NCBI GenBank assembly: GCA_964016885.1
Contig: OZ024743.1
Location: 247,566,001-247,630,000 of the forward strand
DNA length: 64,000 bases
Source: Eledone cirrhosa
Taxonomy: Eukaryota
Reading direction: 5' to 3'
Part shown: positions 6,001-57,052 of the stretch, in pieces
How positions within the stretch are numbered: position 1 is the stretch's first letter
Layout of the letters: each line of letters opens with the position of its first letter
Made by a program: the position numbers and the translations under genes
The notes under the pieces: model-generated
What the model was told of the DNA's origin: nothing
Databases searched by the model: none
Seen by the model: only the letters and a program-made list of their open reading frames with translations

Positions 6001-9000
6001 ACACGGTTTGGTTCCACAGCCACAACTATTGATTTTACGGAGATATCTTGCTGAAATTCACGCCACACATAGCCAATGAGTGTCTGCACATGTACCAGTA
6101 ATTACAGATCGATCCGACCACGGGCGGCCGGCCCGCGATTGAAAAGGTAACTCCGCCGGCAAATCGTCATTTTTGGATTCGTTTTCTTCGAAGCACACCA
6201 TTCGCCGGCGGACTTTGTTGACGTTTAACACGGTTTGGTTCCACAGCCACAACTATTGATTTTACGGAGATATCTTGCTGAAATTGACGCCACACATAGC
6301 CAATGAGTGTCTGCACATGTACCAGTAATTACAGATCGATCCGACCACGGGCGGCCGGCCCGCGATTGAAAAGGTAACTCCGCCGGCAAATCGTCATTTT
6401 TGGATTCGTTTTCTTCGAAGCACACCATTCGCCGGCGGACTTTGCTGACGTTTAACACGGTTTGGTTCCACAGCCACAACTATTGATTTTACGGAGATAT
6501 CTTGCTGAAATTGACGCCACACATAGCCAATGAGTGTCTGCACATGTACCAGTAATTACAGATCGATCCGACCAGGGGCGGCCGGCCCGCGATTGAAAAG
6601 GTAACTCCGCCGGCAAATCGCCATTTTTGGATTCGTTTTCTTCGAAGCACACCATTCGCCGGCGGACTTTGCTGACGTTTAACACGGTTTGGTTCCACAG
6701 CCACAACTATTGATTTTACGGAGATATCTTGCTGAAATTGACGCCACACATAGCCAATGAGTGTCTGCACATGTACCAGTAATTACAGATCGATCCGACC
6801 AGGGGCGGCCGGCCCGCGATTGAAAAGGTAACTCCGCCGGCAAATCGTCATTTTTGGATTCGTTTTCTTCGAAGCACACCATTCGCCGGCGGACTTTGCT
6901 GACGTTTAACACGGTTTGGTTCCACAGCCACAACTATTGATTTTACGGAGATATCTTGCTGAAATTCACGCCACACATAGCCAATGAGTGTCTGCACATG
7001 TACCAGTAATTACAGATCGATCCGACCACGGGCGGCCGGCCCGCGATTGAAAAGGTAACTCCGCCGGCAAATCGTCATTTTTGGATTCGTTTTCTTCGAA
7101 GCACACCATTCGCCGGCGGACTTTGTTGACGTTTAACACGGTTTGGTTCCACAGCCACAACTATTGATTTTACGGAGATATCTTGCTGAAATTCACGCCA
7201 CACATAGCCAATGAGTGTCTGCACATGTACCAGTAATTACAGATGGATCCGACCACGGGCGGCCGGCCCGCGATTGAAAAGGTAACTCCGCCGGCAAATC
7301 GTCATTTTTGGATTCGTTTTCTTCGAAGCACACCATTCGCCGGCGGACTTTGCTGACGTTTAACACGGTTTGGTTCCACAGCCACAACTATTGATTTTAC
7401 GGAGATATCTTGCTGAAATTCACGCCACACATAGCCAATGAGTGTCTGCACATGTACCAGTAATTACAGATCGATCCGACCACGGGCGGCCGGCCCGCGA
7501 TTGAAAAGGTAACTCCGCCGGCAAATCGTCATTTTTGGATTCGTTTTCTTCGAAGCACACCATTCGCCGGCGGACTTTGTTGACGTTTAACACGGTTTGG
7601 TTCCACAGCCACAACTATTGATTTTACGGAGATATCTTGCTGAAATTCACGCCACACATAGCCAATGAGTGTCTGCACATGTACCAGTAATTACAGATCG
7701 ATCCGACCACGGGCGGCCGGCCCGCGATTGAAAAGGTAACTCCGCCGGCAAATCGTCATTTTTGGATTCGTTTTCTTCGAAGCACACCATTCGCCGGCGG
7801 ACTTTGCTGACGTTTAACACGGTTTGGTTCCACAGCCACAACTATTGATTTTACGGAGATATCTTGCTGAAATTCACGCCACACATAGCCAATGAGTGTC
7901 TGCACATGTACCAGTAATTACAGATCGATCCGACCACGGGCGGCCGGCCCGCGATTGAAAAGGTAACTCCGCCGGCAAATCGCCATTTTTGGATTCGTTT
8001 TCTTCGAAGCACACCATTCGCCGGCGGACTTTGCTGACGTTTAACACGGTTTGGTTCCACAGCCACAACTATTGATTTTACGGAGATATCTTGCTGAAAT
8101 TGACGCCACACATAGCCAATGAGTGTCTGCACATGTACCAGTAATTACAGATCGATCCGACCAGGGGCGGCCGGCCCGCGATTGAAAAGGTAACTCCGCC
8201 GGCAAATCGTCATTTTTGGATTCGTTTTCTTCGAAGCACACCATTCGCCGGCGGACTTTGCTGACGTTTAACACGGTTTGGTTCCACAGCCACAACTATT
8301 GATTTTACGGAGATATCTTGCTGAAATTCACGCCACACATAGCCAATGAGTGTCTGCACATGTACCAGTAATTACAGATCGATCCGACCACGGGCGGCCG
8401 GCCCGCGATTGAAAAGGTAACTCCGCCGGCAAATCGTCATTTTTGGATTCGTTTTCTTCGAAGCACACCATTCGCCGGCGGACTTTGCTGACGTTTAACA
8501 CGGTTTGGTTCCACAGCCACAACTATTGATTTTACGGAGATATCTTGCTGAAATTCACGCCACACATAGCCAATGAGTGTCTGCACATGTACCAGTAATT
8601 ACAGATCGATCCGACCACGGGCGGCCGGCCCGCGATTGAAAAGGTAACTCCGCCGGCAAATCGCCATTTTTGGATTCGTTTTCTTCGAAGCACACCATTC
8701 GCCGGCGGACTTTGCTGACGTTTAACACGGTTTGGTTCCACAGCCACAACTATTGATTTTACGGAGATATCTTGCTGAAATTGACGCCACACATAGCCAA
8801 TGAGTGTCTGCACATGTACCAGTAATTACAGATCGATCCGACCAGGGGCGGCCGGCCCGCGATTGAAAAGGTAACTCCGCCGGCAAATCGTCATTTTTGG
8901 ATTCGTTTTCTTCGAAGCACACCATTCGCCGGCGGACTTTGCTGACGTTTAACACGGTTTGGTTCCACAGCCACAACTATTGATTTTACGGAGATATCTT

Positions 9001-12000
9001 GCTGAAATTCACGCCACACATAGCCAATGAGTGTCTGCACATGTACCAGTAATTACAGATCGATCCGACCACGGGCGGCCGGCCCGCGATTGAAAAGGTA
9101 ACTCCGCCGGCAAATCGTCATTTTTGGATTCGTTTTCTTCGAAGCACACCATTCGCCGGCGGACTTTGTTGACGTTTAACACGGTTTGGTTCCACAGCCA
9201 CAACTATTGATTTTACGGAGATATCTTGCTGAAATTCACGCCACACATAGCCAATGAGTGTCTGCACATGTACCAGTAATTACAGATCGATCCGACCACG
9301 GGCGGCCGGCCCGCGATTGAAAAGGTAACTCCGCCGGCAAATCGTCATTTTTGGATTCGTTTTCTTCGAAGCACACCATTCGCCGGCGGACTTTGCTGAC
9401 GTTTAACACGGTTTGGTTCCACAGCCACAACTATTGATTTTACGGAGATATCTTGCTGAAATTGACGCCACACATAGCCAATGAGTGTCTGCACATGTAC
9501 CAGTAATTACAGATCGATCCGACCACGGGCGGCCGGCCCGCGATTGAAAAGGTAACTCCGCCGGCAAATCGTCATTTTTGGATTCGTTTTCTTCGAAGCA
9601 CACCATTCGCCGGCGGACTTTGCTGACGTTTAACACGGTTTGGTTCCACAGCCACAACTATTGATTTTACGGAGATATCTTGCTGAAATTGACGCCACAC
9701 ATAGCCAATGAGTGTCTGCACATGTACCAGTAATTACAGATCGATCCGACCAGGGGCGGCCGGCCCGCGATTGAAAAGGTAACTCCGCCGGCAAATCGCC
9801 ATTTTTGGATTCGTTTTCTTCGAAGCACACCATTCGCCGGCGGACTTTGCTGACGTTTAACACGGTTTGGTTCCACAGCCACAACTATTGATTTTACGGA
9901 GATATCTTGCTGAAATTCACGCCACACATAGCCAATGAGTGTCTGCACATGTACCAGTAATTACAGATCGATCCGACCACGGGCGGCCGGCCCGCGATTG
10001 AAAAGGTAACTCCGCCGGCAAATCGTCATTTTTGGATTCGTTTTCTTCGAAGCACACCATTCGCCGGCGGACTTTGTTGACGTTTAACACGGTTTGGTTC
10101 CACAGCCACAACTATTGATTTTACGGAGATTATCTTGCTGAAATTCACGCCACACATAGCCAATGAGTGTCTGCACATGTACCAGTAATTACAGATCGAT
10201 CCGACCACGGGCGGCCGGCCCGCGATTGAAAAGGTAACTCCGCCGGCAAATCGTCATTTTTGGATTCGTTTTCTTCGAAGCACACCATTCGCCGGCGGAC
10301 TTTGTTGACGTTTAACACGGTTTGGTTCCACAGCCACAACTATTGATTTTACGGAGATATCTTGCTGAAATTCACGCCACACATAGCCAATGAGTGTCTG
10401 CACATGTACCAGTAATTACAGATCGATCCGACCACGGGCGGCCGGCCCGCGATTGAAAAGGTAACTCCGCCGGCAAATCGTCATTTTTGGATTCGTTTTC
10501 TTCGAAGCACACCATTCGCCGGCGGACTTTGTTGACGTTTAACACGGTTTGGTTCCACAGCCACAACTATTGATTTTACGGAGATATCTTGCTGAAATTC
10601 ACGCCACACATAGCCAATGAGTGTCTGCACATGTACCAGTAATTACAGATCGATCCGACCACGGGCGGCCGGCCCGCGATTGAAAAGGTAACTCCGCCGG
10701 CAAATCGTCATTTTTGGATTCGTTTTCTTCGAAGCACACCATTCGCCGGCGGACTTTGTTGACGTTTAACACGGTTTGGTTCCACAGCCACAACTATTGA
10801 TTTTACGGAGATATCTTGCTGAAATTCACGCCACACATAGCCAATGAGTGTCTGCACATGTACCAGTAATTACAGATCGATCCGACCACGGGCGGCCGGC
10901 CCGCGATTGAAAAGGTAACTCCGCCGGCAAATCGTCATTTTTGGATTCGTTTTCTTCGAAGCACACCATTCGCCGGCGGACTTTGTTGACGTTTAACACG
11001 GTTTGGTTCCACAGCCACAACTATTGATTTTACGGAGATATCTTGCTGAAATTCACGCCACACATAGCCAATGAGTGTCTGCACATGTACCAGTAATTAC
11101 AGATCGATCCGACCACGGGCGGCCGGCCCGCGATTGAAAAGGTAACTCCGCCGGCAAATCGTCATTTTTGGATTCGTTTTCTTCGAAGCACACCATTCGC
11201 CGGCGGACTTTGTTGACGTTTAACACGGTTTGGTTCCACAGCCACAACTATTGATTTTACGGAGATATCTTGCTGAAATTCACGCCACACATAGCCAATG
11301 AGTGTCTGCACATGTACCAGTAATTACAGATCGATCCGACCACGGGCGGCCGGCCCGCGATTGAAAAGGTAACTCCGCCGGCAAATCGTCATTTTTGGAT
11401 TCGTTTTCTTCGAAGCACACCATTCGCCGGCGGACTTTGTTGACGTTTAACACGGTTTGGTTCCACAGCCACAACTATTGATTTTACGGAGATATCTTGC
11501 TGAAATTCACGCCACACATAGCCAATGAGTGTCTGCACATGTACCAGTAATTACAGATCGATCCGACCACGGGCGGCCGGCCCGCGATTGAAAAGGTAAC
11601 TCCGCCGGCAAATCGTCATTTTTGGATTCGTTTTCTTCGAAGCACACCATTCGCCGGCGGACTTTGTTGACGTTTAACACGGTTTGGTTCCACAGCCACA
11701 ACTATTGATTTTACGGAGATATCTTGCTGAAATTCACGCCACACATAGCCAATGAGTGTCTGCACATGTACCAGTAATTACAGATCGATCCGACCACGGG
11801 CGGCCGGCCCGCGATTGAAAAGGTAACTCCGCCGGCAAATCGTCATTTTTGGATTCGTTTTCTTCGAAGCACACCATTCGCCGGCGGACTTTGTTGACGT
11901 TTAACACGGTTTGGTTCCACAGCCACAACTATTGATTTTACGGAGATATCTTGCTGAAATTCACGCCACACATAGCCAATGAGTGTCTGCACATGTACCA

Positions 12001-12396
12001 GTAATTACAGATCGATCCGACCACGGGCGGCCGGCCCGCGATTGAAAAGGTAACTCCGCCGGCAAATCGTCATTTTTGGATTCGTTTTCTTCGAAGCACA
12101 CCATTCGCCGGCGGACTTTGTTGACGTTTAACACGGTTTGGTTCCACAGCCACAACTATTGATTTTACGGAGATATCTTGCTGAAATTCACGCCACACAT
12201 AGCCAATGAGTGTCTGCACATGTACCAGTAATTACAGATCGATCCGACCACGGGCGGCCGGCCCGCGATTGAAAAGGTAACTCCGCCGGCAAATCGTCAT
12301 TTTTGGATTCGTTTTCTTCGAAGCACACCATTCGCCGGCGGACTTTGTTGACGTTTAACACGGTTTGGTTCCACAGCCACAACTATTGATTTTACG
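1..12396. repeat. 227-bp tandem satellite array (~54.6 monomers in window, continues to the left)
   Basis: Same unit recurs every 227 bp (ORF track repeats at 156, 383, 610...). I found only five recurrent substitution sites and one 1-bp insertion (~10130). About 19 CpG per monomer. The array stops abruptly at ...gattttacg|ttgaaaaa (12396). Confidence 0.98.
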
Positions 12397-13489
12397 TTGA
12401 AAAAATAATGAGATTGAGGTAGATTTATGTGTCATATATATGTCAAGATGACCTTAGGTATTTCCATCAATAATGCAAAAAAAGTTTATTTACAAACCGA
12501 TAATTGTTGTTCCTGACAACACTTTTGTTTACAAACTAGAGCAAACATACTCAATGCAATAGTCTTTTTGTTTCTTTGTGAATTTATAGATTATTTTATT
12601 TATAAAACAGACTCACTGCTCAATTTACCTTCTGGTGGTGTAATTTTACAAGATTCTTTTATTATGCAAATTACAGATTCTTTTAATCTGTATTCTTTTT
12701 GTTTTCTTTTAATAAATTACTGGTAAAAACCTGTTACAAAGTTGCCAGTAAAAACATTTGTTAATCATGTATGTACCTTCATAAATTGTTCAAATAATGT
12801 TTAGATTGACTTTCTTGGTGAAGATTAATAAGTTTGAATACTGCTGAACAATACCATTTATTTTAAATATTTTGTTTCATATAAGTATATTCGTTGATTA
12901 AAAAAGCAGGAATTTTAAATGCAAGTTTTTCAACATATTAGTTGCCTAGATTATAAACCAGTGTTTCAAACTTCTCGGCAGATCTGTTTTGCGTGAGAAG
13001 GGTTGCAGATGTCATAGTGATACTGCCACCAGATATGATGGTTAGTTGTGATATAAGCGGGCTCCTGCCAGACAAATAAGCAAACCTAGACCAACAGTGG
13101 TAAATTACTAGGGAAGATGGAGCAATGGGTGACACTGTTAACTCCTAAGAAAACTCTCACAACCCAGTGGTGTACCTACAATAAGTCAAGTAATGGCTGC
13201 CTCCAAAAAATCCCAGTCTTCGCGGAAAAAGTACCAGATTGGTGACTGGCATGAATAAGACAACCAAAACTGCAAATTTGTGAGAGGTAACAAAAAGAAT
13301 CATTTCATAGTATGCTTCATATGGGGTAACAAAGGATGCTTTCAGGCCTGCTTGAAAAATATATTACAGTTTCCATATCTAATGCTGTAAGGACTGACAA
13401 TGGGCCTGTGACCTGTCCTGTGAGGCATGGGATGGAAGCACAAAGGTTACATGTCCTAAGACCCTAGAGAGGGTTTGGAGGGAACAAAC

Positions 13490-15520
13490 CTTGAAAAATA
13501 GTAACTGGAATGTTTCAACCCTTACAGGCAAGGAGCAGGCCATATGCTACTGGCTTGATATAGTTGGGGTTTCCTCAACAAAGCCTCATGGCTCTGGTAC
13601 TGTGGATTTGGATGGAGGATGGAAACTCAGGTGTGATGCCAGAAAAGACTGCACAGGTGAGTGGGGTGACTCACAACCACCTGGATCTCATTGGGAGAAG
13701 GATTTGCTTCTTGAACTTAGCTTGAAAGAAAGATATATGTGGGTGGTGCAAGTTTATGCACCAAACAGCAAGCCCAAATACAGATCCTTCCTTTATAAAG
13801 TATTAGATGCAGTTAAGACTGAGTCATATATCCTAATGGGAGGTTTCAATGTATATGTTGGCACTGACTACCTGACATGAAAAGGAATAATTGGAAGGAA
13901 TGGTGATCCTAATCTAAATATGGAGAGGCCTTATTATACTTCTGTTTAGGCTCTCTATTATGAACACCTTCCAGCACAAAGATATCTATAAATACAAATG
14001 GAATAAGGGAACTTATGGACAGAGATCAATAATTGATTTTGTTATTGTCTCTGATCTCTTTGATTCTGTGCTGGATGTTTGTTTTAAGAGAAGGGCTGAG
14101 CTGTCAACTGATCACCATCTAGTCATCTACAATCTGAAGCCAAGGAAACACACAAAATATGCAGGTCGTGTTCAACCTACAGGATAAAGTGAGAAGCGCT
14201 GGCAGATAAGGAAGTCAGGAACAGATTTGTGGATACTATTGCATCCAAATTCAGAGAATTCCCTGAGCAAACAGGATGTTGAAAAGGAGTGTTGACTGTT
14301 CAGCTCAGCAGTTTCTACTTCAGCTGTTAAATGCTGTAGGCTTGGTGTGGCAGGAGGACCACTTTGTTCAATAAAGATGCCATCTGAGTAAAGTTTTACA
14401 AAACTTCAGATTAGCAAAAATGTTCTGACAGACCATCTGCTGACTTTGCAATAAGAAGTCCTCCTCCACACTTGTATCAGGAACGCGTCTGGGGTGCATC
14501 CTCAAGAGGTGAAGAGAATACTTTGCAGATCTCCTAAACCTTGTCGCAACAACATTTATGATATACATGAGATAGATCTTAGAGGCTGAGGTCACAAGAG
14601 CAATTAAACAGCTCAAATGTGGCAAGACATCATGGAGGATGAAATTTAGCTCAAGATGTTAAAGGCCTTAAATAGAGAAGGTAATTTCTGACTGACTCAT
14701 GTGTGCTGGATGGCCTGGATATCTGCAAAGGCACCTAAGCAATGACAATCAGGAGTGATAATCCCAATTTTCAAAAAGGAAAACAAGAGAAATTACTCCA
14801 ATTATAGAGGGACCTCCTTGTTAAGCCTACTCGCTAAATCTATGATAAGTGTCTGGCAAAGAGAATGGGGAGGATTGCTGAGTTCAAGCTAGCTGACGAA
14901 CAGTGTGGTTTTCTCCCTGTACACAGCACAGTCAGCCAAATATTCTCAACGTGAGAAATAGTAGGAGTATTGCCAAGAAGTGTAGTCTTGTTTGGTAAAC
15001 CTTGAAAAGGCATATGACTGTATTCCACAGGAGCTGTGGTGGAAGGTTCTGCAAGAGTATGGGATCAATGGACAGTTTCTTCTTGCCCTGAAGTCTCCAT
15101 ATGACTGCCCTAGTATTTGTGTTCAGATAAATGGTGCGAAGTGCAAACCATTCAATGTGAGTGTCAGACTCATCTCTCCTGTTCATTATCTTCATGGACA
15201 GGATTAACATGAGCAGCCAGGTTGGAAATGGTATCGAAACTGGGGTTGTATGATCAGCCTGCTGGAATTTGCAGACATGGTGATACTTAACTCGACCAAA
15301 AGTGATCTCCAACATACACTTGATAGTTTTGCTGCACGGTGAAGAAGTCCAAGTATCTCGGGGCTATGTTCAATTGTGATGGAAGATAGGAGGCCGAATT
15401 AAGTTTAAAAAATTGCAAGAGCAGGTGCAGTAATGTGCCAGCTTCAACATCTAGTCATCTGAAGAAAGGAGGTAGGTGTAAAAGCCAAACTCGCTATTTC
15501 TAGTTTGGTATTCAATCCAA
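13490..15520 (+). mobile_element. Degenerate RTE-clade (Expander/Rex3-like) LINE, APE endonuclease + RT fragments
   Basis: Fragmented frames contain WNVSTLTGKE, QVYAPN, MGGFN, IIDF, STDHHLV (APE endonuclease) and NLEKAYDCIP (RT). Many stops and frameshifts. Confidence 0.85.
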
Positions 15521-15559
15521 CCTTTAACTATCTATGTGCATCATTACGTTCTCGTGAGC

Positions 15560-16160
15560 TGCAAATGTCTTTTTTGAATAGTCATTCATTACTGAAGAGT
15601 GGCTCAGTTGGGGTAAAGAGCCAGCTCACGAGTCGAGAAGTGGCCTGCATCCAAGAAAAATTCTTCTGAGCGTGTGGTAGGATATGCAGGGAATAATTCA
15701 TCACGAGCTGCCAGGTGATAATCAAACAATAACAGCCAAAGTCTTTTGCCAACAGCTAATACGAAGCAGCAAAAACGCCGATCATTAACATTAAAACAGA
15801 AAAGGAGTCATCCTTCCTCATGATAACACTAGACCACACACTGCACAAAAGACAAGTGATCACCCCCAAAAATATACCTGGAAAATTATGTTTCACCAAC
15901 CATATTCCACGGACCTCGCATCAACAGATTACCATCTTTTTAGAAGCTTGCAAAATCACTTGAGTGGATTAAGAATTACTTCAAGAAAAGTAAAAAATGA
16001 GTTAGTTTCCTTTTTTAGTTCAAAACCTAAAGAATTTTATGAAAGTGGCGTTAAAAAGCTTAATCACAGATACGAATGGTGACCAGATTAACAATTAAAT
16101 AAATCTGATATTGTGTTGTTTTTCTTATTGAGCCTTAAAAAATGGACAACTTTTATTAGA
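15560..16160 (+). mobile_element. Mariner (DD34D) transposase 3' remnant
   Basis: Translates to FLHDNTRPH and QPYSTDLASTDYHLFRSLQNHL, matching the mariner HDNARPH / YSPDLAPSDY motifs. Frameshifted and 5'-truncated. Confidence 0.85.
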
Positions 16161-16204
16161 ATCTTATTCATTTGGGACAACACATTCAAAGTATATAGAA
16201 ACAA

Positions 16205-16399
16205 AACGAATTATGAAGAGGTAAAAACAAGTTGAATTACATGACTTCCTGTTGGCCATGCGCAGTGATGTTTGTAATAATATTATGGGATTGCTTTTGC
16301 GTGGTATAGTCCAAAATGGTAGATACTATTAATTGTTGGAGTCTATCTCTAACACTATTTCATTATACTAATAATTTATTTGTAGACTAAGAAATAAGC
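16205..16399 (+). promoter_or_regulatory. Putative proximal promoter/5' UTR of CK1alpha copy A
   Basis: Block shared with 23885-24110. Contains ACTTCCTG (ETS-like, 16244), CATGCGCA (NRF1/Ewg half-site-like, 16257) and CAAAATGG (YY1-like, 16312). Function is inferred only. Confidence 0.4.
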
Positions 16400-17374
16400 A
16401 TGGATGTAAGCAGCGAAAGATCATCTGGCCGAAATGATTTTTTTGTTGGTGGGAGGTATCAACTACTGCGGAAAATTGGGAGTGGGTCGTTCGGTGATAT
16501 TTACTTAGGAATCAGCACAATGACTGGCTTGAAAGTCGCTGTTAAATTGGAGCCAGTGGATGCTCGCCACCCTCAACTTCTATACGAAGGTAAACTATAT
16601 AGAATCTTACAAGGAGGCTTTGGCATCCCTCGAGTCCACTTTTGTACTCTGGATAGAGATTATTATATCCTTGTCATGGATTTATTAGGGCCGAGCCTTG
16701 AAGAATTGTTCAATTACTGCTCAAGGCGATTTTCTTTGAAAACTGTTTTGATGATTGCGGACCAGATGATAAGGCGTGTTGAATATGTTCATAACAAAGG
16801 TTTTATTCACCGGGATATTAAGCCTGATAATTTCTTGATGGGAAGCGGAGGACACTTTAATAAGGTATTTCTGATAGATTTTGGTTTGGCAAAAATATAT
16901 CGCGACATTAAAACACGCTTACATATTGCCTACCGTGCAAATAAAGATTTAACCGGCACTGCTCGTTATGCTAGCATTAATACTCATTTAGGAATCGAAC
17001 AGAGCCGTAGGGATGACATGGAATCCCTTGGCTTTGTTTTGGTATATTTTAGACGTGGTAGCCTTCCCTGGCAAGGTCTGAAAGCAGCGACCAAAAAACA
17101 GAAGTATGAGAAGATATGCGAAAGAAAAATGTCTACTTGGAATAGAGTTTTGTGTCAAGATTTACCTATAGAATTCGCTAGGTATGTGAATTACTGTCGT
17201 GCATTGCGTTTTACTGAAACACCCGATTATACGTATCTCAGTCAACTTTTCCGCAGACTTTTTCGTACACTCAATTATCAGTACGATTATATATATGACT
17301 GGACAATGTTAAAACAAAATGCTACTAACAATGTACAGCAGCAAACAACCACACAAGCTTCGACTGCTCGTTAA
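16400..17374 (+). CDS. CSNK1A1: Casein kinase I alpha-like kinase, intronless, diverged paralog (324 aa)
   Basis: Intact ORF with [65 protein letters not shown] and a short alpha-type C-terminus (DWTMLKQ). Confidence 0.93.
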
Positions 17375-18619
17375 AAAAGTATTTATGAGAAAACTCCGAA
17401 TGATATGTCTTGATTAAACAACAAAAAAGCACCAACTTTGTTTTTAATACCAGTCTCGTGTGTCATACGTAAGACATTGAAATATAAACTTACTTATCCA
17501 TTGTAAAAATTTAACCAAGGACTGGTTGAAAATTCCTTGTAAATATCAATTAATAATCGGGAGGAATGTATTTTGCATATAAAAAGTCCTAACAGAATTG
17601 GTTGAATATAAATACCATCTTATCCGTCTGTTTCTTTTTACATGTACGCATACATTCTTACTTTCTCTCCCACCCACTCATCCTCTGATGATTATTTCTA
17701 ATCAGACAGTCCAAGTGCTTTGATGTCCAAAGGAATTAATGTGATGATCACATTGTTGTTAACGATAATAGTAATAAAATTCGATGACAAATACATGGTT
17801 TTGTGGATATCAGCATCAAACCAAAACTGTCTTTGAACTTGACATGAATGAGACTGGTTGTTGGAATTTTTAAGCAACCTTCCCCACAGGTATAAAATGG
17901 AAACAAATAAAATATTTTAGAGAATAAGAGAAATGATTGTATCCTTCATGCAGAAAACTGAAACTGAAATAAATCTTAGGGGTTTCTACTTGTTCGTTTG
18001 ATGCTTCTGTTAATGTAACTATTATTTACCGTACTGGGAGCTTTTTTCATGGCATTAGTACTACCACGGGTGTATTTTATCATGTCTCCAGTGGTACCTC
18101 ATTATAATATTTGGGCCTTGTTTGTATCATTGGCCCAGCTGGTGAGGCAATGATGAGAGAAAGATGAAATAGTGTTAGATTATATGTTTGTTAAGTAGGG
18201 TGGAGGTCACAGTGGGAGAGCAATTGACATGTTATGGAGTGGCCTTGAAGTGAGTGACTTGTACTTGGCAGTATATTGTGAACTGTGTCCCACTTTCCAT
18301 GCATACAAGGGCTGGGCAGGAAAGGTTTATCAAGGATGTGACAGAGAGAAGGGGTGTACATCATCATCATTAAACGTCTATTTTCGATGCTTGCCTGAGC
18401 TAGATGAGCTGTCAGTCTCTGAGACTAGGTTGAACATGGTAATCACATCTAGTTTACATGTTCCATTTTGGAATGACCTCCACCACCAGATGCCCTTCCT
18501 GACTCCGTTTGAGCATTTTATCGTAGTGCAAGGTTGGGCTTGCCTGGCATTCTTTGTTGGCATAAGTCGCATGTGTAAGGAGGACGCATCCACCTTTGGG
18601 CTGGACTAGAAAGGAGGCA

Positions 18620-19330
18620 GTCTTTCCATGGAGGAAAGAGTTGGATGGCAAAGGTGACAATGGAGGAAGTTAGTAGAGGAGGGCTAAGGTGGGATACATA
18701 GATAGTGAGGTAGGATGGGTGAGTATTAAGGTTAGGTAGGTAAGGTGTATGAGGGAGATTGGTGTAAATTACTGTCTTATGCATGAAAAGATGGGTCCTC
18801 TGCAGTATGGTTTGTCACCAATAAACTCGATCCTGCTTTATCGCCTTTGTGAGGTTTAATTGCATGAGTTCAGCTTTTACTACAGCATCTCAAGCTTTCC
18901 TAGGTCTTCCTCTTTCATAGTTTTCATCAACTTAAGAGTGCCCTACATTTCTTTGTTTAGATATACTCCATTGCAGTCTTCTCCCCTGCACACTGCATCT
19001 AACCCCTCTCACACCATCTCTCAATTTTTTCCAATCAAAACCCAAGTCTCACTTTCATACAGCATTGTCATTTACACACGAGCATCCTACAATCTGCCTT
19101 TCATTTTGAGGGAAACCCCTTTGTACTCTGTATTGGTAGTAGATCCTTCAACTTTTTCCAACCTGTTCTCATACTCTGACTCTGCTAATTTGGTTACCCA
19201 AGTAACAGAAGCTGTCAACTACTTTGAGGGAACCCTCTGAGCACTTGATAGATCTCGTTTCTTGTAAGCTCTTGATATTTACTGCTCCTGTTTATCAACC
19301 ACATACAAAGCTTATTTTCTTTACTAGCCT
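18620..19330 (-). mobile_element. RTE LINE 3' fragment
   Basis: Similar to the RTE copy at 60820-61440 (gcatcctacaatctgcctttcattttgagggaaa) and the reverse complement of 48700-49550. Confidence 0.65.
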
Positions 19331-20394
19331 ACCTGATATCCTGTTACATCATTTGTGTACTCATAATTTACATTTAGGACATAGAATAGAATGAGCAAGG
19401 CCATTTCCCTGATGGAATCACGGCCCTGTTTTCTTTTCTATTTACTAGAACTTTAGTCTTTGCTAAGTTAACTTTGAGGCATTTCTATTCCAAATTTTGC
19501 TTCCAAGTCTGGAATTTCTTCTTTGTAGCAGTTGATTATGGCTGTTGCTATGCCAGTTATTGGTTATGACACCATTCTGTATTACTTGGTTTACAATATA
19601 GGTGGTTAAAGTGTGACACTTGACAGAAATCATGTGAGGCAGTTGATAGACAAATCTCAAAGAAGTCATGATGAAGATGAAGACAAAGTTCAACTGAAAT
19701 AATCCATACAGGAGGATGCAACAAGACCAATAAAATGCATATATGATGCTCTAGCTTGAAGAAGGCACCAAGGGGGAGGTGACAGAAAAACTTTCAGGTT
19801 TCCAAAATGTATAATCCTATTAACAACTCAGTTGGTGTCACAAATGAGATTAACTGGGCTAATATATAGTCATATAAGAGATTTCTGTTACACTTGGACA
19901 ATAACTGGGCATGTTGCTGCATTTGCCATGGACAAGGATCTAGAGGATTCAACACTCATGGTGTGCACATAGACAATTCATTCCAAATATGTCTTACCTT
20001 ATGAGTAATTCTTCACAGAGAAAAGACATTATCACTCAGGATGTTCCTTCACCCCCAAGAGTGAACCCCAGGTAAACCCGGAGCTTCAAGCTGATGCTAC
20101 GGACAGAGGAGATTCATATCCTACTCACAAAAGAAAGTGGAATCATGGATTTGGTGCCTCAAAAAGTATAAATCAGGAAACAGAACCCTGACTGAGTTTT
20201 AGATGACTCGTACTATAACTCTCTCCATGGACAGCTGAACAGCCAATTAGCTATGAAAAGCAATCTTATGTATTTGTGTACAAAAAGGTAATATTTTTCA
20301 TATTTGTATACATTTTTACAGGGAGGTTTTAAAGTATAGTTATACCAGCATTAATTTTATCTTAGATTTTCATCATACACCGTTGTGAATGTGA

Positions 20395-20434
<40 letters not shown>

Positions 20435-20440
<6 letters not shown>

Positions 20441-21030
20441 ATTGGAAGACTAATTAAAAAAACCGTTTCCTAAACCATATGACCTAGGGATATCTGAAAA
20501 AAAGATCAAACACTAAACTTGCACCCTTACAAACAGTGGCTCTAATTTCTTCATGAAAACTTGAATGATCCCGACCCTTTGTAAATGGCTTGAGAATGTG
20601 CCAGCTGTGTATCACACACAGAAGGCTGGAATATACTGAAAAAGCTACACAACTCCACAAAATGTCTGAACACGTCGACATATTTCTTGAATCACTGCAC
20701 AAATACACCGTAAAGAACTGAAAAACTCCATCATTCCTCGGTGAAAGGAACTCTAATACCATGGATCCCACTCATTTACCACCAATAAACTTATCAATTT
20801 TCTGCATAAACCCTCCTCTACAAACTCATTAATATTTCTTTTTTATATGCATACTCCAAGAGTTAGCTCCCTTTATTTATTTTTGCCCTCCATTGAGTAT
20901 ATTTAACTATCATATTACCTCCCTTACTTTTCCATTACCACTCTATGTTTATTACCGTCAGCTTCTCTATTGGAATTCTTTTGTAGTTGAAGGAAAAGAA
21001 CACAACCATTACAAAACGCTGTCAATATAG
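20435..21030 (+). mobile_element. Highly decayed Penelope-like element (GIY-YIG C-terminus + tail)
   Basis: Reads ...PFVNGLRMCQLC... followed by a LNT...HK-like segment, resembling the Penelope CxLCxxEK...LNxRSE...CxH tail also seen at 62720-62880. Very degenerate. Confidence 0.35.
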
Positions 21031-22484
21031 GGCGAGTATACGAGGCGGGGACTATCTAAGGAAAAATTTGAAATGGACAACCAAAGAAACAATTGTACCC
21101 AGATGACAACATAATATAATAAATTAATAAATATCTATATACCATGAATTTAGTGCTCTCCCAACTTTATATATATATATTGAAAAGAAGTCATCGGATA
21201 TGAGGATATGACCGAAAAATCTATGATATATATGTGTTGTATGTATGTGCCTTCGATACAATCTGTACCTTGTACATTTATCGATGCTGGGATATGTGAC
21301 AATTTCAACATTTATTTTTGCATTTTGTGGAATTTCATAAATAGAATATACGTACAAATACGAATGCCAGAACATAATTGGCTTTTAAAAGTTTGGCCGA
21401 AACCATAATTATTGTAGTGGCTTTGAAAGGATAATTAGTTTGAGGTAGATTTATGTGTAATATATACGTCGACGACTTTAGATGTTATCATCAATAATGC
21501 AAAAAAGTGTATTTACGAACAGACAAATGATTAAATGCAAACTTATAAATAGTTATTAACAAGTTATACTACATAGGTTAGTCGTAAATTAGGTTTTAAC
21601 AGATAAATAGAATGCTGATTTAATATGTTACGTGGTTTTTAGATAGTTAACACTAAAATCATGTGACAACCAGAGTAGGTAATCTATCACAAACATACTC
21701 CCCAAGCAAATGTTCTCTCATTTGTTGTTCCTGACAACACCTTTGTTTACAAACTAGAGCAAACATACTCAATGGAATAGTCTTTTTGTTTCTTTGTGAA
21801 TTTATAGATTATTTTATTTATAAGATAGACTCACTGTTCAACTTTATCTTCTGGTGGTGTAATTTTGTAAGATTCTTTTATAATGCAAATTACATATTCC
21901 CTTAGTTTGTGTTCTCGTTTAATAAATTATTAACCACTAATTTAATTGCTACTATAAACTATAACATTATTATTTTAAACTATTCAGTCTTTTTTTTTCT
22001 TTTGGATGAATATTATAATGGCTTATTAAAAAACAAAACTCTTTTAGCGAATGAAGACTGACATATGATGAATGTGTATATAATAATAATAATGAAATTA
22101 TTGTGTAAAGTGTTCAGGTGCACTACAACTCGTCAAAGGTGCATGTACAGTACATATAATAATACACAAAGTTCAGGGAAGTGAATAGTGTATGAGTAAT
22201 GATGGACATGTGTGTATGTGTATGGAGGGGGAACATTAGGTGTAGTGTTGGCGAATCTCAGGAAGCTGTGTCTCGACAGCTAACAACCGATGCAGGTAGT
22301 TTGTTCCATGCTTCAGCAACTCTGAGCGAAAGTCATGGGAACTGTACTGTTTTCTGACTTTGTGGGCACATCGCAATCAAAAAGGTACTCAGGGTTGTTG
22401 TTGGCAAGATGGTTAACAATGTTCTTTCTAACGCGATAACCAACAAATTACACCTGAACTGACTCTCATCTGTCAATCTAATAT

Positions 22485-22656
22485 GTTTCTACTTTTGGCA
22501 CAAGGCCAGCAATTACGGTACATTGCTGGTACTTTATTTTATCGACCCCGTAAGGATGAAAGGCAAAGTTAACTCCGGCAGGATTTGAACTCAGAATGCC
22601 AAGGGCCGTAACTCTATGCGTCAAAGCATGGCGTCCGACCCTCTACCGCCCTAATA
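22485..22656 (-). mobile_element. tRNA-derived SINE (Nin/Deu-domain type), 5'-truncated
   Basis: Reverse complement is very similar to the SINE at 46116-46300 (B box GAGTTCAAATCC, gcctttcatcct...gggtcgataaaat). Flanked by direct repeat tcaatctaatat (TSD). Confidence 0.8.
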
Positions 22657-22678
22657 TCAATCTAATATTAAACTAAGA

Positions 22679-22771
22679 GGTTGACTTTGCCTTTCATCCT
22701 TACGGGGTCGATAAAATAAAGTACCAGTAATGAACTGGGTTATTGCTGGCCTTATGCCTAAAGTAGAAATA
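22679..22771 (+). mobile_element. SINE 3' half with 15-bp TSD
   Basis: Same family core. aatattaaactaaga is duplicated at 22664-22678 and 22772-22786. Confidence 0.8.
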
Positions 22772-23218
22772 AATATTAAACTAAGACATGGTTTAAGTTA
22801 ATCATCACATCAAGTTTAGGAGTTCGTCCCGTTGTATATGAGGCCGAATAAGTTATCTTAGTTAACTATGAAATTAAGAATTAGGAAAACTTATGATTTT
22901 AGCTAGTTAGTTATTAATTTTTCATTGAATAATATTTCGGTTTGTCAATTTTATTCCCCCTTAAAATATTATTTTCGCAATGGATGGCAGATCTTAATTA
23001 TTAGGATCTCGCTATTGTTGTTTTGCGAAAAATATGAATAAATATTTAAAATTTAAATGTTTTATGAGATAATCATATTGGTTGCCTAATGAAAAAAAAT
23101 CTTTATTATGTTTTTCATTGAATAATATTTTTGTGTTTCAACTTTAAAATATTAGTTTCGCAATGAATAGTTAATCTTAATTATTGAGATCTCGCTATTG
23201 ACGTTTTTCTAAAAATAT

Positions 23219-23813
23219 AGATATTATAGAAAAACATCCTTCTCGATTTCAGAAATAATTATTTTTCCCCGATTTTTTCTTTTTCCCGTGTGCTATGAAA
23301 TAATCTGACCTCCGAACATACCACAAAGGACTTTCTATCCGAGAACGGAGTGTAGTGAGGAGCCTTGGACTTTATTCCGCACCATCATCACTGGATTTTT
23401 CTTTACCATGTTTTGTTTTTCGTATGTTATATTATTCGATTGTTAGTTAGCCGTGCCTCACGATAAATGTCGGAAAGGTTAGGGGTTAGGGTGAGCGTGT
23501 TTGGAGGTCAGATTCATCGACAACATAGAAAAAGAGAACTATGAAAATAAAATGTTCCCACTAAAACACGGGAGGGATGTAGACTTTCGAAACTCTGAAG
23601 GTCTTACTCACTTCTCTTTCTACAAAGGTTTCGATGTCAGATTCGTTAATAACACGGGGCGAAATGGTAAAGAATACATCAAAGGTTCCCTTTTGTTTTT
23701 TTCGGGGAAAAAGTAAACTGCAACATGTTCGGAGGTCAGATTAGTTGGTAGCAGACGAAAAACAAAAAATATTTCTCACTGAAATATAGAGGGGTGTTTT
23801 TTTATAAATTTAC
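23219..23813. mobile_element. Non-autonomous DNA transposon (MITE) with terminal and subterminal inverted repeats
   Basis: Perfect 19-bp inverted repeat taatctgacctccgaacat (23301-23319 / 23725-23743). Imperfect outer inverted repeat aaaaacatccttctcgatttcag / ctgaaatatagaggggtgttttt. aaaatat lies on both sides. Confidence 0.6.
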
Positions 23814-23884
23814 CAAAATATGAACAAATATATAATTATTCATTTTTGAAATTAATAACTATGACAACAAATATAGAAAATAAA

Positions 23885-24110
23885 ACTGAATTATGAAGAG
23901 GTAAAAAAAAAAAGGTTGAATTATATTACTTCCTATTGACTATGCGCAGTGGTGTATGTATTAATATTATGGGATGTTACTTTTGCATGGCATTGTGGGA
24001 TTAAATATTCATTACTGTCAAAATGGAAGATATTCTTTGGCGTAGTTTATCTTTAACACTATTTTAGTAGGAAAATAATTAATAATTTTATTTGTACACT
24101 TAAAATAAGT
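23885..24110 (+). promoter_or_regulatory. Putative proximal promoter/5' UTR of CK1alpha copy B
   Basis: Homologous to 16205-16399: ACTTCCT (23928), ATGCGCAGTG (23942), CAAAATGG (24019). Confidence 0.4.
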
Positions 24111-25082
24111 ATGGAGGTTGGCAGCGAAAAAACATCTGGCCGAAATGTGTATTTCGCCACTGGAAAGTATCGATTAGTGCGGAGAATTGGCAGTGGGTCG
24201 TTCGGTGATATTTACCTAGGAATCAACATAACAAATGGCGAAGAAGTCGCTGTGAAATTGGAGCCATTGGATGCTCGACACCCTCAACTTCTATACGAAA
24301 GTAAACTATATAGAATATTACAAGGAGGTGTTGGCATCCCTCATACCCGCTGTTGTAATCTGGATAGAGATTATTGTTTTCTTGTCATGGATTTATTAGG
24401 GCCGAGCCTTGAAGATTTGTTCAATTTCTGCTCAAGGCGATTTACTATGAAAACTGTTTTGATGATTGCGGACCAGATGATAGGGCGTATCGAATATGTT
24501 CACAACAAAAATTTTATTCACCGAGATATTAAGCCTGACAATTTCTTGATGGGAATCGGACGACACTGTAATAAGGTATTTATGATAGATTTTGGTTTGG
24601 CAAAAAAATATCGTGACATTAAAACACGCGTACATATTACCTACCGTGAAGATAAAAATTTAACTGGAACTGCTCGTTATGCTAGCGTTAATGCTCATTT
24701 GGGAGTCGAACAGAGCCGTAGGGACGATATGGAATCACTTGGCTATGTTTTGATGTATTTCAATCGTGGTAGCCTTCCCTGGCAAGGTCTGAAAGCAATG
24801 ACCAAAAAACAGAAGTATGAGAAGATAAGCGAGAGAAAAATGTCTACTTCCGTAGAAGCTTTGTGTAAAGGTTTTCCTGCAGAATTTGCCATGTATCTGA
24901 ATTATTGCCGTTCATTGCGTTTTACTGAAGTACCCGATTATCTGTATCTCACACAGATTTTCCGCGTACTTTTTCGTACACTCAATTACAAGTATGACTA
25001 TACATATGACTGGACAATGTTGAAACAAAAAGCTACAAGCAACGTACAACCACCACAGACTTCAATTTCGAATGTTCGTTAG
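24111..25082 (+). CDS. CSNK1A1: Casein kinase I alpha, intronless (323 aa)
   Basis: Intact ORF with alpha-diagnostic [51 protein letters not shown] and DWTMLKQK. All catalytic motifs are present. Confidence 0.96.
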
Positions 25083-25959
25083 AATAGCTTGCAATAACTT
25101 TTAAAAGCTTCGAACGATGTCTTGATATGAAAACAAAAAGCACCATTTTTATTAAAATACCAGTCTTATGTGTCATACTGAAGTAATTTGGAGTAAAAAT
25201 ATGCTTACCCACTGAAAATTTAACCAAAGACTGGTTAAAAAGTCCTGTATATATGAAAAGAAAACTACAAATTGGAAGGAATGTATTTTGGATATAAAAG
25301 AAAAATCCTGTTTAGTCTTAACAGAATTGGTTAAATATAAATACCATCTCTTACCCCTGTTTCTTTTTACACGTACGCATACATTCTTACTTTCTCTCCC
25401 ACCCACCTAACCTTTGATAAATATTTCTAACCAGATAGTCCAAGTGCTTTGATGTCCAAACTGAATCAATGTGATGATCATTCACAAAATTCAGTGAGAA
25501 ACATGGCTAGCTTTTGTCGATAGCAGTATCATCAAAACCCAAACTGCCTGAAATGACGATAGTGACTAGTTGTTGGAATCTTTTAGCACCCTTTCCTCAC
25601 TGGTAATAACAAGGAAATATTGTTTTGGAGGGCAGGAGAAATAAAAATAATGTATTCTTCGTGCAGCAAACTAAAACTGAATTAAATCTTAGAAAGATTT
25701 TCACTTGTTAGATGCTTGTATTAAGTGTTGAGTGAAATCAGCTGATGGGGCATGATAAAACTGATTTATTGAAGTTGGATAATAATGAATATTTGGAGTT
25801 TACTCTGAGGATAGACTGGAGTGAACTTACCCTTTGGATTAAAATATTTAACAAACATATATGATATATATGTATATATATATACATATATATAATGTAT
25901 ATATGCATACACAAAAGTGATATGGATTTAAATATTTACCAAACATGTATTGTGTGTGA

Positions 25960-25990
<31 letters not shown>

Positions 25991-27569
25991 CATACGTGTG
26001 TGTATGTATATGTATATTTATAAATATGTAATGATAATCTGTGGAAAAAAATCAACTAGCAGTTGTGAAAGTTGCTTTGTTTTGAAACAGCTTTTGGAGA
26101 TATCTTCAAGTTCCCTTACTCTGTTATCTTTTTTCTTGCTTCCTCTCTTTTTTCTGCTTAATTCTTTTTTTTTTTAAATAAAAAAAAGGTTAAATATAGG
26201 AGAAAAATAACGAAGTGTTAACCTGTTCTATTTAATGTATAACCTGATGTTTTCTGTGTAATATTTTATTTATATCCTCTACTTGCACCATTTCATAGAT
26301 ATTTATCATGATGCCCTGAATCTTCAGCTTAAAGTGAAATGTAAATTGTAGGTGACAAAAATCTTGATTAAATGTTTTTCTTTCTCTTTATTTTGATCGT
26401 TTTATAATTGTTCTGTATATTTGGTGTTTGCCTTTCATGTACACAAATCTACTTCACATTCACTAACACACATTGATACATACTACCTACATAAAGCTGT
26501 GACGAACACAAACTCCAGGTCATATTAAAACTAATCTTCCTAGCATTAATGTTATGTTTCTTAATAGATTATATTTTTCTAATTTTAATATAAGCGTCGT
26601 TTATTGTGTTGTTGGGTGTGGCTAGTTTGTTTTCTTCTCTTTCTCCATCTCTCACACATTCGACTACACAGCCTGTATAGCTGTCTACTAGTTTGGTAAT
26701 TATTGTTCACACTGATCACCTTATATAATCATTAAAAATATCATCGTTAGTTCTTGTTGCATATACGTATAATTAGAGAATATAATGTAATATCAAGCTT
26801 AAATACCTTTTGGAATATTTTACGAATATATCTTAAATGGACGAACCTTTATAGTTCGGGAAAATAATACACAAACAGAAACCAGAATAACGAAACAATA
26901 CCAAACACCTTATTAAATTTTCGTATATTTAATAATGTTTTTAAGTATAAAATATATATTCAGCATTCTATTGTTTGATCCATTATCTATTATTTCTGTA
27001 CATGTTAGAAATGCATTGTGCATAACTCGATTTTTTTACATTGCAGTTTCCAAAATGGAAAGTTATTGACAAGATTTTTATTAATTACAAATAAATTACG
27101 GCCTTCCTCATCTGTTATGCCAGTTGAATTAAATATATATTGTAAAGCTAAATAGACAGAGTAGATTGTTAGTGTTTGTATAGAGTAATTCTTGAATTCT
27201 GCATATAAAGTAAGAGGTAAATGCAAGGCAAAGTTTCCAGCTATGCCCTGTATCTCAGATGCTTTTTTTTTAAGTTACAGGCAGAATACTTTGTTCATTG
27301 TCTGTACAAGAACATTTTAATGCTATCATTACCATATTATGTCAAACAATAGTAATATATTTTATACCTATTAGCTATTATTAAATACATATTTTCGAAG
27401 CATTATTGTTCGGTATTGCGATATTCTTGTTTTTATTTGTTATTTATTCGTTTGGATATTTTCGTTCTTTTAATTAAATGCTTTCTCTAAAGATAACCAC
27501 TTTTTAATACCCAATCATTACCTTGTTAAAATTGTTAGTTATTTCTGCTATTTAAAAATTCTTTCTTAA

Positions 27570-54110: not shown

Positions 54111-57052
<2,942 letters not shown>

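Follow-up and report, generated by a model that had tools for sequence, protein, structure and literature searches.

In mammals, the protein kinase gene CSNK1A1L is an intronless, testis-biased retrocopy of CK1alpha that changes faster, with the parent CSNK1A1 retained and the copies dispersed and not in tandem. Lineage-restricted CK1alpha-like genes, namely the Drosophila-specific CKIalpha-like I and II, CG9962 and CG2577, are also described in PMC9794997. A further relevant class is that of the orphan retrogenes, which are parentless single-exon genes (PMC3548309; amphioxus SYCP1, PMC5803294) and which in human are reported to be under very strong purifying selection (PMC3548309). We found no published account of octopod CK1alpha duplicates in the open literature, and an Octopus sinensis gonad paper (PMC11202624), in its main text and in one supplement, makes no mention of casein kinase, nor do seven supplements of PMC8384421. 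Here we describe two single-exon CK1alpha genes, copy A and copy B, that reside in a 64,000-nt stretch of the genome of the octopod Eledone cirrhosa (contig OZ024743.1, positions 247,566,001 to 247,630,000). This whole stretch is called the window; all coordinates are window positions unless a contig is named, and residue numbers are those of copy A, which equal human CK1alpha numbering plus 3.

Like CSNK1A1L, copies A and B are intronless CK1alpha duplicates, but CSNK1A1L is dispersed from a parent that is retained whereas A and B stand in tandem. As with the Drosophila CKIalpha-like genes, whose function is not established in the account of PMC9794997, they are lineage-restricted extra CK1 genes near CK1alpha. 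However, that account has Drosophila retaining a canonical CK1alpha beside the extras, and none was found in the E. cirrhosa assembly. The pair also resembles orphan retrogenes in that each copy has one coding exon and a multi-exon parent is missing from the genome, but differs from the human examples reported in PMC3548309 in being tandem, mosaic and relaxed. The reading that we favor, with a probability of roughly one half, is that A and B are mosaics generated by tandem duplication at the DNA level, with B likely performing general CK1alpha work and A likely being still active as a kinase but remodelled where it faces partners and substrates. Judged from its sequence, the locus appears to be a real and functional tandem pair that has diverged asymmetrically, which is a kind already known, and it opens no new kind of system. 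Its sharpest point, which went unseen in the first-pass annotation of this DNA, is a mosaic make-up of two octopod CK1alpha types coupled with the lack of a conserved CK1alpha in the assembly.

Copy A (16400 to 17374, forward strand) encodes 324 amino acids (aa) and copy B (24111 to 25082, forward strand) encodes 323 aa, with both frames running uninterrupted from ATG to stop and no intron in the coding sequence, as the annotation had proposed. A pyrimidine run resembling a splice acceptor and ending in AG precedes the ATG of A by 13 bases (16377 to 16399), where B has AC (24088 to 24110). An intron in the 5' untranslated region (UTR) of A is thus possible, and "intronless" holds for the coding part of the two genes only. 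Both copies are nearer to CK1alpha (CSNK1A1) than to the delta, epsilon or gamma types. For example, the nearest solved structures are those of human CK1alpha (510 bits versus 462 for the next types), and the leading named protein matches are CK1 or CK1alpha. The nearest named proteins are the products of two Octopus bimaculoides CK1 genes, at 89% and 86% to B and 80% and 76% to A, with two Argonauta hians CK1 proteins further down the same match list. A structure model with a predicted local distance difference test (pLDDT) score of 92 has 5fqd_C as first structural match (root-mean-square deviation 0.8); built on CK1 relatives, it confirms the fold only and is no evidence of activity. All 25 listed catalytic (K/E/HRD/DFG), gatekeeper and basic phosphate-binding (anion-site) residues, to which we presume these roles apply, are kept in A and B. 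Alignment likewise bore out both the six motif changes that had been quoted for A versus B and the retention in A of K49, HRD, DFG, TARY and KKQK.

The octopod relatives fall into two types that we label T1, which is fast, and T2, which is conserved. T1 comprises XP_052822313.1 of O. bimaculoides and GAB1600107.1 of Argonauta, while T2 comprises XP_014779447.1 (O. bimaculoides), XP_029632993.1/CAI9720038.1 (O. sinensis/vulgaris) and GAB1598785.1 (Argonauta). The T2 protein of O. vulgaris/sinensis differs from that of O. bimaculoides at one residue. No T1 orthologue beyond these two, including one from O. vulgaris/sinensis, was found among the best 120 of 504, 1014 and 158 matches. At position 58, all three T2 proteins carry Q where P is invariant in other CK1alpha and is kept by A, B and T1. 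In O. bimaculoides, T1 and T2 share a 168-Mb contig and have nearly consecutive UniRef ids, a hint only that they are linked in that species, and the Argonauta genes lie on different contigs. Each of the three octopods has two CK1alpha genes. The Octopus and Argonauta genes share with A and B the 323-324 aa length class and the same heads and tails. However, in E. cirrhosa the two copies have T1 cores and swapped ends, and a plain T2 was not found.

This mosaic structure is carried by trees and diagnostic sites. A 27-protein tree separates A, B and both T1 proteins from all others (support 100/99) and recovers a T2 clade (95/92), with branch lengths of 0.81 for A and 0.18 for B. A tree of the core only (residues 24-256, 12 rows) again places A and B on the T1 side (80/97; A+B 79/66), and approximately unbiased (AU) tests on the core reject A with T2 (p-AU 0.001) and B with T2 (p-AU 0.003). 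The cores of A and B thus belong with Octopus and Argonauta T1, and only the head of B and the tail of A are T2-like. In the head, sites 16, 17 and 23 are T1 in A and T2 in B; in the core, sites 52, 54 and 58 are T1 in both; and in the tail (314-323) A matches T2 at 6 of 8 diagnostic columns and B matches T1 at 8 of 8. Consequently, A has a T1-type head and core with a T2-like tail (314-324), and B has a T2-like head (residues 2-23) with a T1-type core and tail. At sites 158 and 257, A carries third states. Silent divergence between A and B is 0.22 over codons 1-313 and 0.16-0.19 in the core, and it is raised at the gene ends: 0.38 versus 0.17 for codons 281-313 (P 0.03, a region chosen after looking) and 0.32 for codons 1-23 (P 0.10). 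This is as expected if the ends keep the older T1/T2 split. Exchange between T1 and T2 is suggested to recur, since the O. bimaculoides T1 and T2 proteins differ at only 2 columns in 178-307, where those of Argonauta differ at many. Either old gene order requires more than one event, and the divergence of the 3' versus the 5' flanks did not decide between the orders. For work on cephalopods, the caution is that "CK1alpha" is two genes, T1 and T2, with orthology scrambled by exchange.

Further CK1alpha copies were sought in the assembly that contains the window (3.0 Gb, 1796 contigs; possibly incomplete). A protein search with B scored 73 candidates and returned 24 matches, and a search with the conserved Octopus T2 scored 66 candidates. 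CK1alpha was represented only by A and B in the first search, and only by B (86%) and A (76%) in the second. DNA searches with the 3' flank of B, and with its 5' flank plus open reading frame (ORF), each gave two matches, A and B. Neither an intron-bearing CK1alpha parent nor any trace of T2 coding or flanking DNA was found in these two protein and two DNA searches of the 1796 contigs. There were also no CK1 remnants in 300 kb upstream and 100 kb downstream, or 464 kb around the locus. In the same assembly, multi-exon CK1delta/epsilon, gamma and TTBK-like genes were recovered exon by exon. Exon-wise matches on contig C20 are CK1delta/epsilon, and those on contigs C5 and C6 we take, from their motifs, to be CK1gamma-like and TTBK-like. 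Since one CK1delta exon is identical to human at 73 of 76 residues, the lineage is not fast at every CK1. Intron loss is specific to CK1alpha among the CK1 genes found here, because the others keep introns and no CK1alpha parent was recovered. Snail and bivalve proteins among the matches are named isoform X1/X2, as splice isoforms, which is an indirect sign only as to the exon structure of the outgroups.

The duplication extends well beyond the coding sequence. A and B align from 16193 to 18013 and from 23871 to 25724 (78%), which includes proximal 5' flanks (16193 to 16399 for A and 23871 to 24110 for B) and 3' flanks that are likely 3' UTRs (17375 to 18013 for A, with no poly(A) tract at its end, and 25083 to 25724 for B), all on the forward strand. 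A second shared block lies 4 kb before A, where 12397 to 12719 (forward strand), whose 5' end is cut by a satellite array, matches 21423 to 21929 before B (forward strand) at 82% and 88%, the B version carrying an extra ~190 bp inside. A genome-wide search found only these two copies of the far-upstream block, and the A and B units are 9.0 kb apart. Within the block, the duplicated DNA has diverged least at 12504-12719 and 21722-21929, where 16 of 207 positions differ. This unique non-coding segment is half as diverged as silent sites (P 3e-4), and is a candidate for a shared regulatory element, a 5'-UTR element or a 5' exon. Divergence is 0.20 in the 3' flanks, which carry 25 gaps in 594 aligned bases, and 0.08-0.21 in the 5' blocks. 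Between the far-upstream block and A, approximately 13000 to 15500 is a decayed repeat with reverse-transcriptase-like remnants by eye, of which 14980-15497 matches another repeat copy at 73-81%. Dispersed repeats also occupy the corresponding interval before B (within 21930-23870), where a common short interspersed repeat occurs twice, back to back, at 22476-22789 and so forms an imperfect palindrome.

The annotation had proposed a retrogene with an intron-bearing parent. Recent retrocopying, with B or such a parent as the source, would agree with the single coding exon of A, but homology continues through unique DNA for 4 kb upstream of A, the 3' homology ends without a poly(A), and the parent is missing from the assembly. 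Neither hallmark of a fresh retrocopy, a resident intron-bearing parent or homology that stops at the mRNA ends with a poly(A), is present. A spliced 5' exon could rescue this explanation, but the distance of the upstream block from both ORFs makes that unlikely, and we regard a recent retrocopy as scarcely credible. Since unique flanks up to 4 kb upstream were co-duplicated, the pair arose as DNA and not by fresh retroposition, and A was not retrocopied from B. Origin through an mRNA is plausible, but only for an older ancestor common to both copies.

Replacements were polarised with octopod and outgroup proteins over codons 24-280, with codons 81, 177 and 268 counting on both branches. A received 44 and B 14 (44 of 58 polarised if summed; binomial P 1e-4). 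The claim of a lineage-specific pair with asymmetric, replacement-rich divergence is upheld. The pairwise ratio of nonsynonymous to synonymous divergence (dN/dS) is 0.60 (0.40-0.89). Silent changes are not assignable to either branch; an assumed equal split puts dN/dS at 1.04 (0.65-1.68) for A and at 0.40 (0.18-0.74) for B, and over all core codons the value for A under this split ranges from 0.77 to 1.04. A ratio near 1, together with an upstream region broken by repeat insertion and satellite, is what an incipient pseudogene evolving neutrally would show. The annotation had named a sole, ancestrally intronless B beside an untranscribed A with dN/dS near 1 as the outcome that would overturn its proposal. 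Part of that outcome was indeed found, in that no intron-bearing CK1alpha exists in the assembly and dN/dS on A is near 1. The replacements, however, spare the core of the kinase. Measured against 150 diverse CK1 proteins, the 44 changes in A miss all 73 columns that at least 90% of those proteins conserve (neutral simulations place 12.3 there on average, with 0 of 4000 runs as low), and only 3 fall in the 120 columns conserved at the 80% level (mean 20.2 expected). New residues in A are also more family-like than random ones. Neutral decay is thus excluded by what the sequence retains, and A does not look like a decaying pseudogene: it shows neither conservation-blind replacement nor disabling changes. 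The chance of no stop codon alone is 2-7%, and no uncompensated frameshift is present despite the gap-rich 3' flanks. We therefore hold pseudogene status to be very improbable, with very recent silencing as the only variant that is still possible.

Whether the excess in A reflects positive or relaxed selection, both of which the annotation had allowed, depends on how changes are counted; the replacement-rich asymmetry stands, while positive selection rests on counting assumptions. For A, the 137 least conserved codons give a dN/dS of 1.88 (1.19-3.10) to 2.38 (1.51-3.88) under an equal split and of 0.94-1.19 if all silent changes are assigned to A. Codons 44-45 and 247-249 of A resemble compensated small frameshifts, which inflate counts and clusters. 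With these five codons dropped and one count per changed codon, the ratio becomes 1.40 (0.85-2.45) to 1.75 (1.09-3.03), and this conservative counting with two thirds of the silent changes placed on A gives 1.05-1.31. An alternative is that the divergence of A is relaxation only, with a catalytically intact product serving a dosage or narrow-tissue role and no new function, such that positions mattering just to canonical CK1alpha drift freely; this is compatible with either history of T2. The core-wide ratios of 0.77-1.04, the last of the conservative estimates and the frameshift-like codons all agree with it. In contrast, the variable-site values are still 1.40-1.75 under conservative counting with an equal split, and base composition gives no sign of lopsided silent changes (10 versus 11). 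Relaxation alone is a possible explanation to which we give tentative weight, and positive selection on A is suggestive only.

Replacements in A form clusters (6 in 7, 8 in 11 and 10 in 17 codons; P 0.006-0.018, subject to the frameshift caveat) and gather at the beta2-beta3 hairpin (39-45), strand 78-83, loop 149-153, activation segment 166-183 and helices 247-263. On the structure model, they fall in the hairpin between strands 32-39 and 45-52, strand 79-85, loop 149-153, the activation segment and helices 248-251 and 257-268. The specificity of CK1 isoforms is generally ascribed to their docking partners and less to the active site. Given their low family-wide conservation and their positions on the model, the changed residues may be partner-facing. 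For example, residues 35-41 of human CK1alpha, which overlap the changed hairpin, are described as binding cereblon (PMC5968562). A is likely an active kinase whose partners have changed. Because A keeps every family-wide residue and alters 26 of 182 invariant CK1alpha columns, the A/B comparison maps the surfaces that make a CK1 "alpha". A segment that the annotation had singled out as almost identical, with differing codons that change the amino acid (16670-16780 versus 24381-24491, 111 bp), turned out to be ordinary: its identity is at chance level (P 0.55), and its six replacement and one silent differences are expected without selection (P 0.42-0.54). A recent conversion tract at codons 91-127 was likewise rejected (P 0.55), the longest stretch of identity being 35 nt (P 0.62).

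The standing of B was assessed by counting departures from the majority of 20 non-octopod CK1alpha proteins over 292 core columns. There are 70 in A, 55 in Argonauta T1, 38 in B, 32 in Argonauta T2, 24 in Octopus T1, 19 in Octopus T2 and 5-28 in the outgroups. A is therefore more derived than any Octopus or Argonauta T1 or T2. Of the 182 columns that are invariant in the 20 outgroups, A has changed 26, B 11 and T2 7-8. B cannot serve as the conserved reference copy for which it had been taken, as it is T1-type and itself derived. Over residues 24-280 there are 27 departures in Argonauta T2 and 30 in B. The best Argonauta copy is thus derived to about the same degree as B, which allows B to be the general enzyme, but the recent rate of B is high for one. 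B likely does general CK1alpha work.

Several observations weigh against the reading of A and B as a general enzyme and a remodelled partner. The dN/dS of B (about 0.40, 0.18-0.74) lies above housekeeping-level constraint, B has changed at columns invariant in the 20 outgroups (K25R, I193V, I199V), and its rate is unlike that of Octopus T2 with just one residue differing between species. Support in the core-only tree is just the 80/97 (T1) and 79/66 (A+B) given above, with A a long branch, and two core diagnostic sites lean toward T2 (79 in A, 83 in B). The intervals for conservative variable-site dN/dS include 1 in 7 of 8 settings, with the silent changes unassigned to branch. Finally, a satellite of 169 kb adjoins the locus and a 200-N gap lies 216 kb before the window, and T2 could be missing there.

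This last point leads to an alternative in which a canonical T2 is present in the animal but missing or unreadable in the assembly, with A and B being specialist T1 duplicates into which conversion brought patches of T2. Under an original order of T2-A-B, the place of T2 would have been the point at which the satellite now interrupts the A unit. The relaxed rate and unusual residues of B are in keeping with this alternative, as are the upstream regions of A and B, which are recent duplicates of each other, the satellite edge, internal strand switch and upstream gap, and the many core roles ascribed to CK1alpha in PMC5968562. However, it needs an extra duplication plus an assembly miss, no T2 trace occurs in the 1796 contigs or in the 464 kb around the locus, and Argonauta T2 is about as derived as B. 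We consider this combined scenario unlikely. On the narrower question of T2 itself, real loss of the canonical gene is the account that we find probable, with omission from the assembly a serious possibility.

A bolder form of our reading is that conserved CK1alpha is truly lost, having been overwritten by recombination in an intronless tandem pair, such that Wnt, Hedgehog and clock phosphorylation run on B, a chimera of T2 head and T1 body, while A is positively selected with rebuilt docking surfaces. We regard this full combination as doubtful. If true, this would be an experiment of nature, with no copy in the genome retaining certain CK1alpha residues that are otherwise constant from cnidarians to vertebrates. 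Should T2 really be gone, a highly conserved signalling kinase would be replaceable by a relaxed paralog via tandem recombination.

The favored reading, that of DNA-level mosaics with a general B and a remodelled A, would involve the following events. An octopod ancestor would have swapped its multi-exon CK1alpha for a single-coding-exon copy, probably via mRNA. The T1/T2 split would then have occurred, which at the protein level predates the separation of Octopus and Argonauta. Unequal exchange or conversion between tandem units may subsequently have left two units ~9 kb apart, with both cores T1, cores and flanks differing by ~0.16-0.22 per silent site, a T2-like head kept by B, a T2-like tail kept by A and no separate T2 found. 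A then gained its threefold excess of replacements over B, none of them at family-conserved columns. Freed by B, A may have kept catalysis and primed-phosphate binding while shifting docking and substrate preference. The satellite would be a bystander, with its edge cutting the A unit.

This satellite had prompted a comparison with the Stellate/Su(Ste) conflict loci of Drosophila. As presented in PMC9741089, Stellate comprises 12-20 tandem copies of a gene for a CK2 beta-like subunit and is silenced by Su(Ste) through about 90% identity, being multicopy on the X with the homologous repeats on the Y; neither an amplified CK2 beta-like gene nor a repeat array of such identity is present at the A/B locus. 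In the window the satellite occupies 1 to 12396 (unstranded; 227-bp unit, 99%) as a neighbor and not a functional part of the locus. The whole array covers ~169 kb (contig positions ~247,409,600-247,578,396; about 300 full units) and ends 4.0 kb before A, cutting the A unit at 12396. Its last 47.5 kb contain 209 copies of the 227-bp unit at 99%, whereas its remainder is older and mixes 196- and 227-bp units. The array shows higher-order periods and, near 247,486,450, about 79.5 kb before the window, a head-to-head strand switch, and upstream of the array there is a 25-bp repeat array and the 200-N gap, at 247,349,572. Genome-wide, 11,586 sites match a 29-mer of the unit exactly; the first 100 among the matches listed are all on contig C1, where the family forms large arrays, and the satellite is possibly centromere-associated. 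The unit matches the genes and their flanks over 10 nt at best (E 1.3). As a genome-wide family with no sequence match to A or B, the satellite thus appears to be a bystander.

A locus of the Stellate type, where the array silences or counters a kinase copy via small RNAs, would draw on adjacency only, and on a resemblance of about 70% between the last ~50 bp of the array (12348-12396) and the matching place upstream of B (21378-21422). The latter was reached in 0 of 2000 shuffles when anchored and has P 0.25 when unanchored, and it is either a satellite relic or a junction guided by chance likeness. The analogy fails because the satellite is genome-wide and without CK1 homology: no array of ~90% homology exists, and the genes are two CK1 catalytic kinases and not an amplified CK2 beta-like gene. 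The likeness amounts to a casein-kinase-named gene near repeats, nothing more, and such a conflict locus is extremely improbable. The satellite was also considered as a ribozyme array, which was rejected as Rfam on 11000-26000 gave only four sub-threshold matches, to TA repeats.

Among other genes noticed, two ORFs in the window, 51687-52451 (reverse strand) and 56558-56986 (forward strand), are presumably DDE transposases, IS1595/Merlin-like and mariner-like, respectively. Elsewhere in the genome there are three VRK-type kinase genes with long open frames, which make VRK-type the second CK1-superfamily gene that is intron-free in E. cirrhosa. The first (locus L005, 1198-2439, reverse strand; contig C7, ~27.50 Mb) is a single-exon ORF of 413 aa with VRK1 as best match, the second (L006) is nearly identical to it and lies 554 kb away at ~26.95 Mb of the same contig, and the third (L008, 1426-2505, reverse strand; contig C9, ~36.88 Mb) is a single-exon ORF of 359 aa.

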